DNA of 23,506 nucleotides from a virus (Duplodnaviria > Heunggongvirae > Uroviricota > Caudoviricetes). The DNA lies in IMG/VR virus record IMGVR_UViG_648276653_000011, positions 1-23,506 of that record; one strand, given 5' to 3'. The position numbers and the translations under genes are program-made. This document shows, piece by piece, positions 4,360-22,930 of the stretch. Under the pieces are notes generated by a model. The model was not told where the DNA came from. It did no database searches and saw only the letters and a list, made by a program, of their open reading frames with translations. Positions within the stretch are counted from its first letter, which is position 1; the number at the start of each line of letters is the position of its first letter.

Positions 4360-7300
4360 TGTACAATCCTCCATCCCGACGCGATGACTGCATAATTGAC
4401 ACAACCCTGCTGTCGATCAGATCCACCAGTCCCCTGGCTGAGCGCGCATCTATCTCGCCATTGCTCCCTTGATTCTGAATGCTGATGTGATACACGGGAG
4501 AATAAACCAACCCCCCCGCCACTATTCACATTGCCAATGGCTCTGACCCCAAGAGAGCCGTCCGCTGCCCGTGTCAGTGGCATGATAGCTTCAGGCCCGG
4601 CCTCGCCCATCAGCCCGGCGCCTTTCGCAAAAGCAAAATACGTCGGTGTATCCACAATAGTGTTACTGTAAGCACTCAGATTTGCCGATGTGTAAACACC
4701 ACCTTTTGCGTTTGCCACCGCCCCCGAAATCCATCCGCCGACCGTACCAAGCCACCATCCGGCACCGGAGAGTGACTTCAGTCCGTTAACAATGGCCGCA
4801 TTCATCAGAATTTTTGAAACTTCCTGGAGAATTGAACTCCCCCAGTTTCTCCAGTCCACAACATTTCCGGCCAGTGCATCGGAAATATTTGATACCAGCC
4901 CGTCCATAGTGGAAACGACAGCATCTGCCGCCTGCGAAGCATAATCGGTGGCACTGTCTGCCCAGTTGGTCAGCCCCTCCTGGAGTCCTGCATTCCAGTT
5001 ATTACGTAAAGCATCGGCCTTTGCATAATAATCCTGCTGATCGCTGAGACGCTCTTCCAGATATTTTTTATTCAGTTCTTTCTCCTGTTTCCACAGGGCT
5101 TCTTCAATTTCTCCGGCCTGATACTGTCTCAGCAGCTCGTTATTTTTCTGCTCAAACTCATGCCGGATACTCCACATTTCCTGGAGTCGTTCGCGCATCC
5201 GTGAGCCTTCACCATATCCCAGTAACTGCGCGTCGTTAGACGCCCGGGTACTGGCATTACTGTCCGCCAGGCTGCTTTCATACGCAGCAAGCTGCTCACG
5301 AATCTTTTTCTGGTCGATGAGTGCTGCATTCTGCAAAAGCGTTTTTTTCTGCGCTTCTGACAGGGTTGATAATTCGCCCTGACTGACCTGATATTTCATC
5401 TTAGCCAGTTCAGTATTCTGCCCTGCCAGTGCTATCTGTTCTTTTTGCTGTTTAATCAGCCGTTTATAAATATCTTCTGTTTTTTCCGCTTCGGTCTTTT
5501 TATGCGCTTTGGGTTTATTTGCCTGGTTATTTCGCCAGGCATCCAGTGAGTTATTGATATAATTCTGTCTGGCTGTCTGATACGCCTCTCCCACAAAGCC
5601 AAGATCATCCGCAGCATAGCCCAGTCGAGCACGCTCACGCGCTTCCCCCTTAAGGCGGGACAGAGCCAGTTCGCGCTTGCTGTTATTCAGTGCGGTCTGC
5701 TGTTTATCATCCAGGGTTGTCTGTGGTAGCCGTAACGGTACATTCACCAGCCCCTGTCGCTGCTGAAGTAATTCATTACCAAGCCCAAGAAGGCGATTAA
5801 ACTCGGTATGCTGCCCATTCATGATCAACAGGGACTGATACGCTTTGTTTTGTTCCGCCGCCTGTTGACGGATCAACGCAACCCGCCGCTCCTCCAGCCC
5901 GGCAAGCACATCCTGAATGGATTGCGCTTTGCCCTGCATTTGTGTGAGACGGGACTGTTCAACTGCCAGTTGATTTGTTGCTTCTGCAAGCCCTTCTGTG
6001 ACTGTTTTTACCGACGTCATGTGGTTAATCATAAAACCGTTATCGGTTGTCCAGCCCGGGTTTGCCAGCACATACTGATAGCCAGCAATTTTTTCCTGTA
6101 AGGATTTAATCTTACTTTTCTGCTCGTCAATTAACCTGTTTTGCTCATCAAGTGCCTGCCGCGTCTTTTCCTCATTATCTGACGCTTCAGGAAGCGACAT
6201 TGCCGACGTTTTCTGGCGAATTTCGTCGATTGTTGCGGCATACTGGCGTGCAGATTCTCTGGCCTGCTCCTGATTCTGATACATCGTGTACCAGGCCGTC
6301 GCCCCCAGCATGACGAGTCCCGGCACACCACCAACCAGCCCTAGCGCACCACTTAACAGACGACTCCCCACTGACGTGACAGTATTCAGCGTTGTCTGCG
6401 CCGCTGTTCTGGCCGCAATATTACGGGTAAGTGACGCCTGAGCAGCTGTCAGCTTCGCTTCTGCTGCGGCCTGCCTTTCGGTACCGCGAGCAGCAACAAC
6501 CGCCTGTTGCGCACGATAAACCGCCGCACGCGCCCTGGCGGTTGCTATCTGTGTCCCCCGAAGTTGCGCTTCAGCAAGAGCCACTTCGTTTCTGGCTGCA
6601 GTAATTAATCCGGCAGTTGCAGATCCAGCAGACGACGCCATATTGCCAAAATATCGGGCTACCCCGACGGCAACCAGTGCGCCAGCTGCAGCAGCCACGG
6701 TATCAATATTGTCTGCAACACCATTCAGCACACCGGAGAGTGTCTTTGTCACTCCGCTTGCCTCGTTCGCACCACCAACCCAGGCCATAAAGGCGTTTTC
6801 AACTTTGGTTGCAGAGGATGAAACAGTATCAGGCATTGCTGCATATTCATCACGCAACGCCCCAAGCTGACTAATCAGTGCAGGAACAACCTTATCGGCG
6901 GTCAGTTTTCCGTTATCCGCCATGGCCTTCAGATCCTTACGGGCAACCCCCATTCCCGCAGCCAGCGCACGAATAACACGATCGCCGTTCTCATTCACCG
7001 AGTTAAACTCTTCACCGCGCAGCACTCCCTGCGCCAGTGCCTGACTGAACTGCATGATCACCGAACTGGCTTCTGCTGTACTGGCACCGGATAATTTCAG
7101 GCCCGTGGAGATCGCCTCGGTGACTTTCAGTACCTCCTCAGAACTGTAACCATACTCCCGCATGGAAGCTGCAGAACGGGCAAAAAGGCTGGCGTTATCA
7201 GAAAACGCCGTCCCCGTTCTCTGGCTGATCGCCATTAATTCACGCTGTGATGCCTGAAAATCATCACTGGACTGTGAGGCCTGCTTCAGACGGGCATTTA

Positions 7301-7596: not shown

Positions 7597-7617
7597 AAAA
7601 AAACCGCCGAAGCGGTT
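7597..7617 (-). terminator. Terminator-like hairpin (AACCGC-TTCG-GCGGTT) plus T-run between the G-T stop and H start
   Basis: Plus strand shows A7 followed by CCGCCGAAGCGG; on the minus strand this is a stem-loop followed by a T-tract ~10 nt upstream of the H start codon. Confidence 0.35.
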
Positions 7618-8312: not shown

Positions 8313-9017
8313 TTAACTGACGGTTACAGTGCAGGAAGTGGAGGTCACTTTGTTAACCGGGCTCGCTGAATCAGAAATCTCGCAGGTATACGCACCGGCA
8401 TCACCGGATGCTGCTGATGCCTTACTGAACGTTGCCGCCGTCTGTCCGGAAACAGGAGAACCACCTTTTTTCCAGGCATAAGAATAAGGCGGCACACCAC
8501 CCACAGCCTCAACCGCCATTTCAAGTTTCGCTCTGGAAGCAACCCGCAGCGTGCTTTTTAAATCGACCTTCACTTTCAGCGGCTCTGTCGTCAGCACAGG
8601 CTTACCTTTCAGGCGCAGAGAAAACGTTGCAGCCACAACACCATTGGTTCCTGCAGACCAGGTATGCTGACGCACCTCTGCCATAAAGGTAAATCCGTTG
8701 CCTGACGGAAAAATAACTTTAAAGCCATACGTGGTGTCATTGTCATAGGCACTGCGCAACGCGTTCTGGGCAGCATTCAGATAAAAGTTGCCTGACATGG
8801 AAATCTCTGAAGCAGCCCCAAGACCGTTAATATTTTCCTGCTCAACAGAACACAGCGTGGTGACATCAATATCCTGCTTTTGTCCTGCGGTAAACTGCAC
8901 CTCTTTGATTGTACAGCTCAGGCCAAGATAGCTGGCAGAATCCAGGGTTTCTGCTGTTACCGGTGCAGACGAAATCATAATTTTCGTCAGTTGCGAACGC
9001 TCAAAATTAGAGGACAT
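8313..9017 (-). CDS. V: Major tail protein with C-terminal Ig-like domain
   Basis: 234-aa ORF MSSNFERSQLTKIMISSAPVTAETLDSASYLGLSCTIKEVQF...; C-terminal ...PPYSYAWKKGGSPVSGQTAATFSKASAASGDAGAYTCEISDSAS... resembles a Big_2-type domain as on lambda gpV; AGGAGA Shine-Dalgarno upstream. Confidence 0.85.
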   Translation of the reverse strand: MSSNFERSQLTKIMISSAPVTAETLDSASYLGLSCTIKEVQFTAGQKQDIDVTTLCSVEQENINGLGAASEISMSGNFYLNAAQNALRSAYDNDTTYGFKVIFPSGNGFTFMAEVRQHTWSAGTNGVVAATFSLRLKGKPVLTTEPLKVKVDLKSTLRVASRAKLEMAVEAVGGVPPYSYAWKKGGSPVSGQTAATFSKASAASGDAGAYTCEISDSASPVNKVTSTSCTVTVS

Positions 9018-9034
9018 ACTCGTCTCCTGAAAAT

Positions 9035-9058
9035 AAAAAAAACCCGCCAGCGGCGGGT
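9035..9058 (-). terminator. Strong intrinsic-terminator-like hairpin (ACCCGCC-GCT-GGCGGGT plus T8) immediately upstream of the major tail gene
   Basis: Plus strand reads aaaaaaaa-cccgccagcggcgggt; on the minus strand a 7-bp GC stem, 3-nt loop, then an 8-T run, followed by the AGGAGA RBS and V start. Confidence 0.55.
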
Positions 9059-9078
9059 GGGTAAAATCATTAATGGCC

Positions 9079-9423
9079 TCAGGCTATTACCTGGAATTCA
9101 AGCGTGGCTCTGCTCAGACGGGAGTCAGGATCATAACCCTGCGTTTTAGAAATAACGGAGGGTGCCAGTTTTCTTACCGCATCAAGCGCCTGCTCACGAA
9201 TATTATCTGCGTCATCAGGTACTGTCGCCCAGACATCGATCTGCACGGTAATTCTGGATTCAGCCTGCCCATCAAGCACATCAGATACCGTGTCAGACAC
9301 CACAGAAAACACCAGCCACGGCGGAGATACCGCAGGCTTTCCCTCCGTCAGCGGGACCACATAAGGATAAACCTGTCCTCCGGCCAGCTGAGACAACAGG
9401 GAATACAGTGTGGCCTCCCTCAT
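9079..9423 (-). CDS. Tail completion / tail terminator-like protein (DUF3168-like, tentative)
   Basis: 114-aa ORF MREATLYSLLSQLAGGQVYPYVVPLTEGK...VQIDVWATVPD...; position directly upstream of the major tail gene; start overlaps the stop of the upstream gene. Confidence 0.55.
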   Translation of the reverse strand: MREATLYSLLSQLAGGQVYPYVVPLTEGKPAVSPPWLVFSVVSDTVSDVLDGQAESRITVQIDVWATVPDDADNIREQALDAVRKLAPSVISKTQGYDPDSRLSRATLEFQVIA

Positions 9424-9869
9424 TTACTTAAGACCTCATCAATAGCCTGATTCATTCGCTGTATGGCAACCTGCGCCGCCAGCTCCTCTGTCGTATCGAA
9501 AGCCGGGCGAATGAATGGATGCGCGGGCATGTTTATCGTTCCCAGCTCCACAAAGCGCCAGTAAAATGCATTTCGGGGATCGCTGGCTTTCATGCTGTTA
9601 TCACTGTTTCCGGTTCGCAGGTTCCGTCCGCGAATGTGGACACCCGAGATAATTTCCCCCCGACGCTTTGAACGCTGAGTGAGAACAACCACATTTTTCT
9701 TCAGTTTCCCGGTTCGCTCCGGCGCACGTTCAACAACTGCATCCCGCATAACTTCAGCACCGGCACGGGTGGCATCGCGCAGAACCTTATTGTTTTCTGC
9801 CCTGCTGAGCGTCTCCAAATCCCGTGCAATATCCGCCAGGCCGGAAAAATCAAGACTGAAATCCATCAC
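9420..9869 (-). CDS. HK97 gp10-family head-tail joining (neck) protein, tentative
   Basis: 149-aa ORF MMDFSLDFSGLADIARDLETLSRAENNKVLRD...YWRFVELGT...PFIRPAF...; position in the head-tail joining block. Confidence 0.55.
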   Translation of the reverse strand: MMDFSLDFSGLADIARDLETLSRAENNKVLRDATRAGAEVMRDAVVERAPERTGKLKKNVVVLTQRSKRRGEIISGVHIRGRNLRTGNSDNSMKASDPRNAFYWRFVELGTINMPAHPFIRPAFDTTEELAAQVAIQRMNQAIDEVLSK

Positions 9870-10204
9870 ACATTCCCCTTCAGGCTGCAGAGTATTTCAA
9901 GCCGGGTAGCGCGTGCATCCGGTATTGGTGGACCTTCTATACCCAGAATGGCCCCTTTAAATGCACCGGTCAGCACTTTCAGACGTGAAGTCGCTGTCAC
10001 ATCGCGCCGGAATCTCATCCAGACTCTGACCGTAGCCTGAGCGGTTTCTGCTCCGCCTGAGATTATCTCCCTCCCGCTGATACCCTTAACTTCTGCCCAT
10101 ACGGTAGCTCCCTCCGTCACCGTCTCCACCGGATGCCCTGACGGAGAGCGGGCGGTGGTGACATTCAGAATAATTACGCGATCACGTAATCTGCCCGCCT
10201 GCAT
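9866..10204 (-). CDS. Head closure / head-tail adaptor protein
   Basis: 112-aa ORF MQAGRLRDRVIILNVTTARSPSGHPVETVTEGATVWAEVKGISGREIISGGAETAQATVRVWMRFRRDV...; pattern typical of the phage head-tail joining family. Confidence 0.6.
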   Translation of the reverse strand: MQAGRLRDRVIILNVTTARSPSGHPVETVTEGATVWAEVKGISGREIISGGAETAQATVRVWMRFRRDVTATSRLKVLTGAFKGAILGIEGPPIPDARATRLEILCSLKGNV

Positions 10205-10212
10205 GTCTCCTC

Positions 10213-10527
10213 CTACAAAGGAATAAAACGATAAGGCTCCAGCAGAGAAGAAAAACCAAACGGGACTGGTGCCTTGCTGACATCTGAGGAATTTTCCCGG
10301 TTTTCGTACCAGTGCCCGACCAGCAACATGAGCGCCAGCAAAACATCATCAGCTATAAGCACCCCTTCAGGATCACCTTCCGGCACCGTCTCCTCATAAA
10401 GCTTACGGTTGATAAAATTTTCTGCCTTGCGGCAGGCAGCCCGGAAATACAGCATCAGTAACTCATCATCAGTTGCATCATCTGTATCAATACGGCACTG
10501 CGCCCTGAGTTTTTCCACTATTGCTGC
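10213..10527 (-). CDS. Head-tail connector (gp6-like) protein
   Basis: ATG at 10527 preceded by AGGAG (6-nt spacer) gives MAAIVEKLRAQCRIDTDDATDDELLMLYFRAACRKAENFINRKLYEE...; the track ORF 10213..10710 is an upstream extension running into the capsid gene. Confidence 0.6.
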   Translation of the reverse strand, partial: AAIVEKLRAQCRIDTDDATDDELLMLYFRAACRKAENFINRKLYEETVPEGDPEGVLIADDVLLALMLLVGHWYENRENSSDVSKAPVPFGFSSLLEPYRFIPL

Positions 10528-10562
10528 CATCAGAAACTCCTGCCCGCAACACTGTGCGGGCA

Positions 10563-10585
10563 TAAAAAAACCGCGTCGGCGCGGT
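10563..10585 (-). terminator. Terminator-like hairpin (ACCGCG-CCGA-CGCGGT plus T7) 22 nt downstream of the major capsid gene, with a second hairpin (10542..10561) before the connector RBS
   Basis: Plus strand reads aaaaaaa-ccgcgtcggcgcgg; minus-strand stem-loop plus T7; adjacent inverted repeat GCCCGCA-CAGTGT-TGCGGGC read directly. Confidence 0.55.
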
Positions 10586-10606
10586 CTGTAACTGAACAAC
10601 GAGTGG

Positions 10607-16680: not shown

Positions 16681-17220
16681 ATGGATATTAAAGATAAAAT
16701 CAATACCATTTTGTTATGTGACATTGCCATCCACCTAGGTATCGAAACTGATATTGATCCACAGCTTGTTAAATATGCTGTGTCATCTGGTAATGATTGG
16801 GTTATCAAGGCCGAATATTCACATTTGGATGTTGACGAACCAAGTAAAGAAGATCGTGATTTTGTTACTGCTGTCTTGAATATGTATCGCGGACTTTCCA
16901 ATGCTTTCAGGAAACTTAGTGATGACGAGCAAAAAGAATTAGTCCGTGACCATCATCTAAAAATACATGATGGGGCAATTCAGCTCCCAGGTTTCGACGG
17001 TAATAATGAATGCGATTACTTCAGTATCATTGAGGCATATCAGAAAATTGATCGCTTCCCCGAACAGAAACAGCCCATTGCCAATACTCATTCACGTACA
17101 GAACATCTCTATAACGCAATGCTTGATGAGTTTAAGAAAATTGACGCTGTAAATCGAAGCTGGGATTTATCGAAGGAAGAACTGGCATCCATTCTTTCCA
17201 CAGCTCCACGCAGTTTCTAA
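16681..17220 (+). CDS. Plus-strand moron gene, 179 aa; tentatively YfbU/UPF0304-like; function unknown
   Basis: ORF MDIKDKINTILLCDIAIHLGIETDIDPQLVKYAVSSGNDWVIKAEYSHLDVDEPSKEDRDF...; visibly AT-rich versus flanking late genes; AGAGGG RBS 8 nt upstream; strand opposite to the late operon; hairpin immediately downstream. Family call is from memory only. Confidence 0.6.
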   Translation: MDIKDKINTILLCDIAIHLGIETDIDPQLVKYAVSSGNDWVIKAEYSHLDVDEPSKEDRDFVTAVLNMYRGLSNAFRKLSDDEQKELVRDHHLKIHDGAIQLPGFDGNNECDYFSIIEAYQKIDRFPEQKQPIANTHSRTEHLYNAMLDEFKKIDAVNRSWDLSKEELASILSTAPRSF

Positions 17221-17225
17221 GTGCT

Positions 17226-17492
17226 TTAGGCGGGTTTCCAACCCGCCTTATTATGCTCGTATATAGAGAAGGAAGCACCCAAATTAACCAGCGCGGATTT
17301 CTTTTCTTCAATACGGCTGTTAAGTTCAGCAACTGCATGCGGGCGTATGGCCTCAAGAAAAGCACTATATTGATAGGCAGACTGGATTGTCACACCAAGC
17401 CCTGCACCACTTTCCAGTATACCTTTCTGTCGCTGTAGCTCTTTCATCTCGTTATAGATGTAATGTGCGTTACTTAGGTTTTCTACGTTCAC
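17226..17492 (-). CDS. Hypothetical protein, 88 aa (73 aa from the internal ATG), in the AT-rich island between Rz and HNH
   Basis: ORF MNVENLSNAHYIYNEMKELQRQKGILESGAGLGVTIQSAYQYSAFLEAIRPHAVAELNSRIEEKKSALVNLGASFSIYEHNKAGWKPA; GTG start with AGGAAG ~10 nt upstream; no family recognised. Confidence 0.45.
   Translation of the reverse strand: MNVENLSNAHYIYNEMKELQRQKGILESGAGLGVTIQSAYQYSAFLEAIRPHAVAELNSRIEEKKSALVNLGASFSIYEHNKAGWKPA
17228..17248 (+). terminator. Hairpin (AGGCGGGTT-TCC-AACCCGCCT) 8 nt after the 179-aa gene stop; probable terminator
   Basis: Perfect 9-bp inverted repeat read directly, followed by TATTATG on the plus strand; overlaps the last codons of the convergent 88-aa ORF. Confidence 0.4.
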
Positions 17493-21009: not shown

Positions 21010-21050
21010 GAAAAAATTTTATCCATATTTTTTGAAAAATGCAAACATCA
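21010..21050 (-). promoter_or_regulatory. Candidate late promoter pR' (-35 TTGCAT, 17-bp spacer, -10 TAAAAT) just downstream of Q; expected Q-utilisation region
   Basis: Minus strand reads TTGCAT-ttttcaaaaaatatgga-TAAAAT (plus coordinates 21039..21044 and 21016..21021); position after Q matches the lambdoid pR'/qut arrangement. Confidence 0.45.
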
Positions 21051-21075: not shown

Positions 21076-21828
21076 TTATCTCGTCACCTTCCTCAATTGC
21101 GCTTCCGCGTATGCTTCTTCCTGCCAGCACTTTGTTACCAGTTTACCAATGACGTCCGCATACCCCTTATACCACTGATAATCGGTCAGGTCTGGTACCA
21201 GCTTCTGGACATGACGTCGTGCCAGCGTGGTCGGTAAACGACTAAACCGGTTTCCATTACAACGCCCACAAATCTTATATACCGGTACGCCATGAAACCG
21301 GGTTCTTTTTTCATCCAGAACAATCCCTTTACCCTTACACCCTCTGCACGCTGTGCTGACTTCGCCCTTACCATGGCAATGCTGACATAGTTCCTTCACC
21401 CATTCTTCCTTGATTACAGATTCCCCGCGTCTGTAGTGTTTCACCACTTCGCGCAATACATTATAAAATCCCGTACCTGAACAATGCTCACAGCGAGCCT
21501 TACTTGCCGCAGACCTGGAGTAATCAGCAAAGGCAAAACTCACGAGGTAAGGAATAATCTGTAACCGGATTTCTTCACTCAATTTGTTCAATGTCGGGTT
21601 ATCCAGTGCCATCGCGTAATTTAGCAGGCCTTCAATCGCAAACTGAGGGTCCTGAACACCAACTTTTGCCAGAAATAAGGCCAACCCAAGTGGTGCTTTC
21701 GACTGCACCATCCCCTGCGCTGCCATTACATCCGTAATTGTTAAACAACCGGTGCCTGTCGCTGGAGCGTCATCGCTCAATTTTGGAGATTTTGGGGAGT
21801 AATATTTTGGTAAGGCTTCAAGGTTCAT
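21076..21828 (-). CDS. Late-gene antitermination protein Q
   Basis: ATG at 21828 with GGAG 7 nt upstream gives MNLEALPKYYSPKSPKLSDDAPATGTGCLTITDVMAAQGMVQSKAPLG...; Cys-rich C-terminal cluster (CEHCSGTG...CQHCHGKG...CRGCKGKG...CGRCNG) suggesting Zn binding; position before the late promoter and lysis genes. Confidence 0.8.
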   Translation of the reverse strand: MNLEALPKYYSPKSPKLSDDAPATGTGCLTITDVMAAQGMVQSKAPLGLALFLAKVGVQDPQFAIEGLLNYAMALDNPTLNKLSEEIRLQIIPYLVSFAFADYSRSAASKARCEHCSGTGFYNVLREVVKHYRRGESVIKEEWVKELCQHCHGKGEVSTACRGCKGKGIVLDEKRTRFHGVPVYKICGRCNGNRFSRLPTTLARRHVQKLVPDLTDYQWYKGYADVIGKLVTKCWQEEAYAEAQLRKVTR

Positions 21829-21841
21829 GCTCGTTCTCCAC

Positions 21842-22930
21842 TTACGCCAGTACGCCAATTGCCAGCGCGCGATCGATAAAACGAAATATCAGCTCCAGTT
21901 GGGAGCCATACTTCTCTTCAAATGCCACTGTATCCGTATGCAGCTCGTTGTGATGCTTTCTGCACAAAGGCAACACAAAGAGATCATGTGCTTTTGTTCC
22001 CATTCCGCCCTGCCCGTGACCAATCAGATGATGCGGATCGTCGGCTGGCATACCGCAGCAAGCACACGGCTGTGTCTTAACCCAACGTGTGTATTTCTCC
22101 TTAACCCAGCGGCGACGTTTAGGCAGCTTCATGAAAGATTCCGGAGACTCTGGATCAACGGTGATGCTTACCACCGTCTTTTCCTGTGGTGGTTTTTGTT
22201 GCTGGTAGGCGTAAGGCAACGGTGCAAGATTTTTTGTGCGTTGTTTCAATATGCTGGTGGCGGTCTGCTCTCCCGGTACGATGTCGCTTTCGCGGTACAC
22301 CGAGCAGATTTTTTCCGCTGGTAATCCCAGCGAACGACGCGATACAGCCTCAGGTAGTGCATCCACCACCTGATTGCAGACCGCCCACCAGGATAATTCA
22401 GCCAAAGATAATTCCCGCTCCTGCGTACCGCTTATTGCGTGACGGATGACGTCAATCACCCATGCTGTCAGATTTTGTTGAGCAAGCAGATCCAGTGATT
22501 CCGATGTCTGGTCACGCAGTTGGTTGTCGCAGTGCCAACACAACACCATTGCGCCGGTACCATAACGGTGAATGACTGTTTCAGAGTGATGGTAATCGCC
22601 ATTAGGCCACTGGCAGGATGTAACATGACGTAATAGCCAGTCAGACAATGCGCCAACGCCGCCAGCAGCACGAATCACCCGTTCGTTACTAAAAAACGGC
22701 AGCAATGTTTTGTCTTCCACCAGCGGCTGGCGAACGGCAGGAACGACTCCGGATGGCAGATTACGCATGCTTTTTGGTTCCGGTTCCACCAGCACTCGAG
22801 GATTATGAAATATCTGTATGGATTCACGGCCCGGCTTAAGGACCACCAGCCCAAGCTCAGGCACCAGAACAGGTCTAAGTAATACCCGCACGTTACCTCC
22901 AGATCCGTTGCTGGAAAGTGCGGGACGCAC
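21842..22930 (-). CDS. DUF968-like protein (YdfU-like; start uncertain)
   Basis: C-terminal ...CACCGMPADDPHHLIGHGQGGMGTKAHDLFVLPLCRKHHNELH... recalled as the DUF968 signature; sits immediately upstream of Q as in Qin-type prophages; annotated start is GTG at 22930, overlapping the upstream 92-aa ORF; internal ATG at ~22768 is an alternative. Confidence 0.6.
   Translation of the reverse strand: MRPALSSNGSGGNVRVLLRPVLVPELGLVVLKPGRESIQIFHNPRVLVEPEPKSMRNLPSGVVPAVRQPLVEDKTLLPFFSNERVIRAAGGVGALSDWLLRHVTSCQWPNGDYHHSETVIHRYGTGAMVLCWHCDNQLRDQTSESLDLLAQQNLTAWVIDVIRHAISGTQERELSLAELSWWAVCNQVVDALPEAVSRRSLGLPAEKICSVYRESDIVPGEQTATSILKQRTKNLAPLPYAYQQQKPPQEKTVVSITVDPESPESFMKLPKRRRWVKEKYTRWVKTQPCACCGMPADDPHHLIGHGQGGMGTKAHDLFVLPLCRKHHNELHTDTVAFEEKYGSQLELIFRFIDRALAIGVLA

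Follow-up and report, generated by a model that had tools for sequence, protein, structure and literature searches.

HK97-type siphophages have long carried annotated terminators inside their late operons. The HK97 record (AF069529) places a 'putative terminator' at 6692–6719, between genes 11 and 12, and the HK542 record (JQ086373) a 'rho-independent terminator' at 6642–6664, at the same junction. In both phages a second hairpin lies right after the tail-tube gene, i.e. the gene is bracketed on both sides. HK97 lists seven sense-strand putative terminators within the late operon, some of which belong to morons (for example, one after gp15). In lambda, by contrast, the equivalent U–V junction is a gap of 7 nt with no hairpin, so late expression in lambdoid phages does not in general depend on the element. 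The major capsid gene E of lambda is itself bracketed by terminator-like hairpins (6099–6116 and 7163–7180), one of which lies directly upstream of E and has a T5 run.

In lambda, 82 and 21, polymerase loaded with Q passes intrinsic terminators for tens of kilobases. Intercistronic hairpins in E. coli act as barriers to exonucleases, and RNA structures obstruct scanning by RNase E; stabilizing hairpins between cistrons and U-rich leaders of E. coli operons include the malE–malF REP hairpin and the leader of rnd, a stem-loop followed by U8 that is needed for translation. Intrinsic terminators between the structural genes of a long late unit are also found in T7 (T-phi, after the capsid gene) and in LUZ7, where they were mapped by ONT-cappable-seq (PMC9163698). 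A full-text literature search, with the HK97/HK022 genome paper (PubMed 10860721) outside its scope, returned no functional study of HK97-type internal terminators, nor was published RNA end-mapping for the gene 11–12 type of junction found in the literature search; an EHEC Hfq-crosslinking paper reports prophage sRNAs near the late promoter, not at the tail-completion/tail-tube junction. Here we consider what such long-annotated internal terminators may be selected for, in a 23.5-kb virus record (the window, i.e. the whole stretch of 23,506 nt that was analysed), which carries the right half of a lambdoid, HK97-like E. coli prophage.

Methods

A sample of 247 related loci was drawn from species-representative genomes (Phytobacter, Symbiopectobacterium, Leclercia and Superficieibacter), from IMG/VR contigs and from named phages (HK97, HK542, ENT39118, AsXd-1, Morganella IME1369_02, Klebsiella ST13-OXA48phi12.2, and Burkholderia phi1026b, KS9 and Bcep176), and gave 110 distinct upstream sequences. 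Differences in loop length threw the MAFFT alignments of the junction out of register with the pairing, and stems were therefore anchored by pattern in Python, with an anchoring of our own. A covariance model built from 15 relatives also matched unrelated terminators, and for this reason it was used to scan the window only and not as an alignment of homologues. To gauge chance, criteria matched to the junction element asked for at least 7 pairs, at least 6 of them G–C, and at least 7 T in 8, and the expected number of matches was estimated from sixty dinucleotide-preserving shuffles of the window.

Results and Discussion

The late operon lies entirely on the minus strand, as do nearly all genes of the window, and the minus strand is its coding strand. 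The Q antiterminator gene (21076–21858, minus; PF03589, E 3.5e-54) is followed, in order, by a cold-shock-protein gene, which is a moron insert with a cspA-type leader, by holin, lysozyme and Rz genes, by an HNH endonuclease gene and those for the small and large terminase subunits, by the genes for portal, protease and major capsid protein, and by four neck genes; then come the major tail (tube) gene, the G and T chaperone genes, the tape-measure gene and the tail-tip genes, all of them minus. The last neck gene is the tail-completion or tail-terminator gene (9079–9423, minus), a homologue of HK97 gp11 that matches Pfam Tail_completion_gp17 (PF11367, E 4.8e-11). The V-like major tail gene (8313–9017, minus) encodes a protein with a C-terminal Ig-like domain. 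The four neck genes overlap or are at most 8 nt apart and form a translationally coupled block; the tail-tube gene is then the first to have an initiation region of its own.

Anatomy of the junction hairpin

The gap between the tail-completion and major tail genes is 61 nt long and reads, on the minus strand, as the TGA stop codon (9081–9079), a 20-nt spacer (9059–9078), the hairpin, a T run, ATTTTC, AGGAG, ACGAGT and the ATG at 9017. An earlier note had placed a terminator-shaped hairpin, a 7-bp GC stem plus T8, at 9035..9058, after the tail-completion gene and ahead of the V start. Such an element is indeed present on the minus strand (9058–9042, then the T run), and those coordinates are correct. 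The GC-rich hairpin (9042–9058, minus) consists of ACCCGCC (9058–9052), the loop GCU (9051–9049) and GGCGGGU (9048–9042), giving 7 pairs, 6 of them G–C, around a 3-nt loop. Folded alone it has a free energy of −12.0 kcal/mol, close to that of the terminator after the cold-shock moron (−12.2 kcal/mol). Directly after the stem comes a U-rich leader (9030–9041, minus) of T7, or T8 if the stem-closing T is counted (9042–9035), then A and TTTT; it ends 1 nt before the ribosome-binding site of the tail gene. The same note had put the element 18 nt before this ribosome-binding site, a distance that needs correction, as the T8 ends 6 nt before the Shine–Dalgarno sequence AGGAG (9028–9024, minus, 6 nt before the ATG) and it is the ATG that lies 17–18 nt away.

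The sequence thus has the features of an intrinsic terminator, for which one expects a GC-rich stem of some 5–12 bp, a short loop and, in the transcript, a run of some 6–8 U immediately past the stem; on the plus strand no T-tract follows the stem at this junction. The hairpin was the top match of the terminator scan of the window, and the covariance-model match here spans 9064–9032. Under the matched criteria there was 1 match on the sense strand and 0 on the other strand, against a mean of 0.02 per window in the shuffles; looser criteria gave 9 sense and 2 antisense matches, against 1.5 ± 1.2. Near-identical relatives (tail protein 97–100% identical) have a T-run of T6, T7 or T8, and the exact T8 of the window may be a real homopolymer polymorphism or a sequencing error (a homopolymer miscall) in the contig. 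No Rfam family reached its gathering threshold at the hairpin, the best being isrK, an Hfq-binding RNA family, with 19.8 bits against a threshold of 50 (9037–9099, minus, E 0.019). The weak Rfam matches that overlap the hairpin are to sRNA and leader families, and the isrK match most likely reflects merely the common terminator shape.

Counterpart in HK97 and HK542

The proteins encoded on either side of the hairpin are related to those of HK97, with 52% identity to gp11 for the tail-completion protein and 71% to gp12 for the major tail protein. HK97, HK542 and the window have a common layout at this junction, in which the stop codon is followed by about 20 nt, a GC hairpin, a T-tract and the ribosome-binding site, and each of the three has a Q gene. 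The stem core is common to HK97 (AACCCGCC/GGCGGGTT) and the window (ACCCGCC/GGCGGGT); the complete HK97 hairpin is AACCCGCC agat GGCGGGTT, with a loop of 4 nt compared with 3 nt in the window. On this sequence comparison, the hairpin of the window is the counterpart of the putative terminator between HK97 genes 11 and 12. It is genuine and already known in kind and position, and it does not represent a new kind of element. The two arrangements differ on the far side of the tail-tube gene, since the hairpin found there in HK97 and HK542 has no equivalent in the window, where the tail-tube gene overlaps the next gene and no hairpin follows until the G/T chaperone genes have ended.

Conservation of the hairpin among relatives

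In 108 of the 110 distinct sequences the GC hairpin is perfect and runs straight into a T-tract, whose end lies 15–26 nt before the ATG of the tail gene; the remaining two each have a single stem mismatch. The junction hairpin ranges over phages of E. coli, Klebsiella, Morganella and Burkholderia, and three phages outside the 110, Proteus Pm34, Enterobacter LAU1 and Salmonella SW-37, have one at the same junction, which in SW-37 contains an internal mismatch. At least eight different stem sequences occur, which differ between clades and are each self-complementary; they include CCCGCC/GGCGGG, CCCGGC/GCCGGG, GCCGCC/GGCGGC, GACCGCC/GGCGGTT, AGACCGC/GCGGTCT, AAGCTGC/GCAGCTT (which contains GCTGC/GCAGC) and GGCCCGC/GCGGGCC. 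Tail proteins across the hairpin-bearing clades are only 35–40% identical.

These data bear first on whether the hairpin might have arisen by chance or persist as a functionless relic, for example as the leftover terminator of a lost moron. That some late-operon terminators of HK97 do belong to morons (e.g. after gp15) fits a relic. The chance expectation of 0.02 per window, however, and retention in 108 of 110 distinct sequences despite such divergence of the tail proteins, with no inserted gene at the junction in any relative examined, make this reading highly improbable, and the conservation data effectively refute it. A tblastn with the tail-completion protein, meant to assign the hairpin to one of its two flanking genes, showed that the tail-completion and major tail genes always co-occur in the phage collection. 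A mosaic boundary was also considered; the level of identity to relatives changes from one gene to the next, and no sharp break coincides with the hairpin.

Within clades, variation is concentrated outside the stem. Among 39 distinct haplotypes of the Burkholderia clade there were 0.64 variant haplotypes per column in the stem and 14.9 in the 5′ flank, with 11 loop variants; the corresponding figures for 32 distinct haplotypes of the HK542 clade were 0.64 and 3.3, with 8 loop variants, and here the first five Ts of the tract are invariant. All eight variant-stem haplotypes of the Burkholderia clade keep pairing as G·U in the sense RNA and would form A·C mismatches on the opposite strand. As these changes pair only in the sense RNA, selection acts on the coding-strand RNA. 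Rare haplotypes with one broken stem pair weigh against the explanation preferred below; the HK542 clade has 7 of them, and the window's clade has 6, in which the break is always at the two outermost pairs.

The sequence of the spacer between stop codon and hairpin is not conserved among the relatives. By eye, the spacer of enterobacterial relatives (17–35 nt) looks C/A-rich and nearly free of G, e.g. CACCCAACG, CCCACCATAAC and CCCCACACCAACCC, and the window's own spacer looks less G-poor than theirs. A C/A-rich spacer may prevent other sequence from pairing with the C-rich 5′ arm.

Selection on the sense RNA would also be expected if the hairpin served as a barrier to RNA decay. The stabilizing 5′ stem proposed in the earlier note corresponds to this reading, and the note named RNase processing as a candidate as well. 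In a message that has been read through, it would block 3′-to-5′ exonucleases that degrade the neck segment after a downstream cut; it might in addition stop RNase E from scanning in from cuts within the poorly translated neck genes, and so shield the tail cistron. Besides the G·U-only substitutions, the positions of such hairpins at borders between weak and strong expression (behind the capsid gene and ahead of the tail-tube and tape-measure genes) accord with this explanation, as does the bracketing of the tail-tube gene by hairpins in HK97 and HK542 and, likewise, of capsid gene E in lambda. A decay barrier, however, needs no U-tract, yet the T-tract stands directly after the stem in every clade, the GC-rich Burkholderia phages included. 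Because this is always so, selection would be for termination competence or a U-rich leader rather than for a bare exonuclease barrier. A 5′ hairpin, moreover, is protective only where a processed RNA begins with it, and there is no known processing site at the junction. We therefore regard a decay barrier as possible, if unlikely. A promoter-proximal 5′ stem was a separate candidate and was rejected, there being no promoter-like site on the sense strand in 9100–10600 and no conservation of the spacer sequence.

The U-tract lies 0–10 nt from a strong ribosome-binding site (GGAG or GAGGGG) in all clades. It could be argued from this constant proximity that the cassette is a translation-initiation module, in which the U-rich single strand before the ribosome-binding site would serve as an S1-binding or standby enhancer for the tail-tube gene, and the hairpin would keep upstream sequence off the ribosome-binding site and uncouple the tail-tube gene from the weakly translated neck genes. 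It would suit such a role that the neck genes overlap or lie within 8 nt of one another and that the free-standing initiation region begins with the tail-tube gene. A/U-rich enhancers upstream of the ribosome-binding site are described as a class in E. coli (PMC2176067). An enhancer, however, would not call for a GC hairpin, which is the best-conserved part of the cassette. The same cassette also stands before low-copy genes (tape-measure and J-like), which means that it is not specific to abundant proteins, and lambda V is highly expressed without one. A translation-initiation module is in our view improbable. Pairing of the U-tract with the ribosome-binding site was considered as a general feature and rejected; it is weakly predicted in HK97, AsXd-1 and LAU1 and absent in the window.

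Sister hairpins in the late operon

The junction hairpin is one of a set. With the covariance model and the strict pattern scan, three sister hairpins with T-tracts were located on the minus strand, one after the major capsid gene (10568–10587), one between the T stop codon and the tape-measure start (7602–7617) and one between the I-like and J-like tail-tip genes (1990–2007). Every late-operon gap of at least 39 nt (4/4, including the junction element) thus has a sense-strand hairpin with a T-tract, and the remaining late-operon junctions overlap or are no longer than 14 nt. The layout is common to the four sites: a stop codon, 8–20 nt, the hairpin, the T-tract, at most 10 nt and a ribosome-binding site. 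There are two further sense-strand elements, one behind the cold-shock moron and the other within the late-promoter leader. Burkholderia phage phi1026b repeats the design on the far side of its capsid gene and ahead of its tail-tube gene. Viewed as a member of this set, the junction hairpin belongs to the end of the neck genes no less than to the start of the tail gene.

Q antitermination and the proposed mechanism

Just downstream of Q, on the minus strand, are a late promoter-like site (−35 at 21045, −10 ending at 21016) and a leader terminator hairpin (20968–20949), and downstream of these the late operon extends over more than 20 kb on the same strand. The arrangement is that of lambda-type Q antitermination, with a Q gene, a promoter-like site, a terminator in a short leader and the late operon beyond; it differs in that the Q protein of the window belongs to PF03589, which is not lambda's own Q family. 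A Q protein is encoded by all six hairpin-bearing phages tested outside the Burkholderia group, counting the window, and these proteins come from three families unrelated to one another: PF03589 (in the window and in HK97, HK542 and AsXd-1), PF06530 (Pm34) and PF06323 (Morganella IME1369_02). The use of three unrelated families would fit a generic terminator, open to override by any antiterminator.

Our preferred explanation, to which we assign a probability of roughly 0.6, is that the junction hairpin acts as a genuine intrinsic (Rho-independent) terminator within the late operon that is read through by Q-modified polymerase. It draws on what was observed here: the anatomy and strand of the element, its conservation with a constrained structure, the Q gene of the window and the precedent of HK97. 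In lytic growth, transcription of the late operon would start at the promoter just after the Q gene, and polymerase loaded with Q would become resistant to terminators and pass the junction hairpin and its three sisters. The major tail gene would then be fully transcribed, and the hairpin would not limit the synthesis of tail protein. Polymerase without Q, such as might start from stray promoters of a lysogen, would be halted at the junction hairpin. In the read-through message the hairpin would form a structural punctuation that separates the neck genes, which are weakly expressed, from the tail-tube gene, which is heavily translated, and the U-tract would leave an unstructured, U-rich leader directly before a strong ribosome-binding site. 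From the sequence context we infer that both the read-through by Q-modified polymerase and the termination of unmodified polymerase probably occur.

The earlier note had offered a Q-bypassed terminator as one possibility, and the Q gene of family PF03589, the promoter-like site with its leader terminator and the presence of Q in all six phages tested outside the Burkholderia group fit that suggestion. It had also called a strong terminator before the most abundant tail protein counter-intuitive. That paradox disappears once Q is considered, as textbook Q-modified polymerase is resistant to terminators, and HK97 has the same element annotated; with read-through by Q-loaded polymerase there is no conflict with high expression of the tail gene.

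For the function under selection there are several candidates: a fail-safe terminator, a barrier to RNA decay, a U-rich leader for translation and an attenuator. The place of the hairpin where weak expression gives way to strong, and its closeness to a strong ribosome-binding site, suggest that the decay-barrier and leader roles may add to termination or stand in its place. Against a fail-safe role at this exact site, the terminator after the capsid gene already stands about 1.5 kb upstream, and a fail-safe role at the junction looks weakly selected.

The three Burkholderia phages phi1026b, KS9 and Bcep176 keep the hairpin and gave no match to PF03589, PF06530 or PF06323. Unless they encode an unrecognized antiterminator, bypass by Q is therefore not universal; either some other, unrecognized antiterminator operates in the Burkholderia phages or the hairpin attenuates transcription there. 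This raises the possibility of a programmed partial attenuator, at which a fixed fraction of polymerase would stop even during lytic growth and produce a gradient of transcripts from head to neck to tail. That Burkholderia phages without a recognizable Q retain the hairpin behind the capsid gene as well as ahead of the tail-tube gene would agree with such a gradient, and there are parallels elsewhere: more than 60% of the mapped termination sites of LUZ7 allow substantial read-through, and T7 is cited for the same gene-dosage strategy (PMC9163698). The terminators of T7 and LUZ7, however, are leaky without a Q-type factor, whereas the window encodes a dedicated antiterminator and full bypass is expected. 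An attenuator at the junction would also cut transcription for the most abundant tail protein below that for the low-copy neck proteins, and a 7-bp stem with 6 G–C pairs and U8 looks strong rather than leaky. Given also the Q system of the window, we find a programmed attenuator quite improbable.

It is possible to speculate further that the hairpin, U-tract and ribosome-binding site, together about 40 nt, form a punctuation unit with two purposes, which would stop unmodified polymerase and, once read through, would insulate the tail-tube cistron and load ribosomes. HK97-type siphophages would have kept this unit through more than 60% protein divergence, and the decay that it guards against would start in the weakly translated neck genes. 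We put this forward tentatively, as an unlikely elaboration of the terminator reading. The malE–malF REP and rnd elements resemble the element of the window in having a stable hairpin between unequally expressed cistrons and a U-run near the ribosome-binding site; unlike it, they are not full terminators, or do not lie in an antiterminated operon. Were a dual purpose to be true, the Burkholderia phages without a recognizable Q would imply an undescribed antitermination system or a programmed attenuator. The near-invariant stems, the free loops, the G·U changes confined to the sense strand and the retention of the hairpin in Burkholderia phages without a recognized Q provide a comparative basis for a bench test in HK97.

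Two minor observations were made in the course of this work. A 249-bp contig in a Pleomorphochaeta sp. assembly (coverage 0.86) encodes a fragment 98% identical to the tail protein of the prophage studied here, which is almost certainly contamination of the spirochaete assembly. In the window, the only strong terminator-like hairpin on the plus strand, besides the bidirectional one after Q, is at 17229–17247; it lies directly after a plus-strand moron gene with a YfbU domain (16681–17220), as expected for a self-contained moron.
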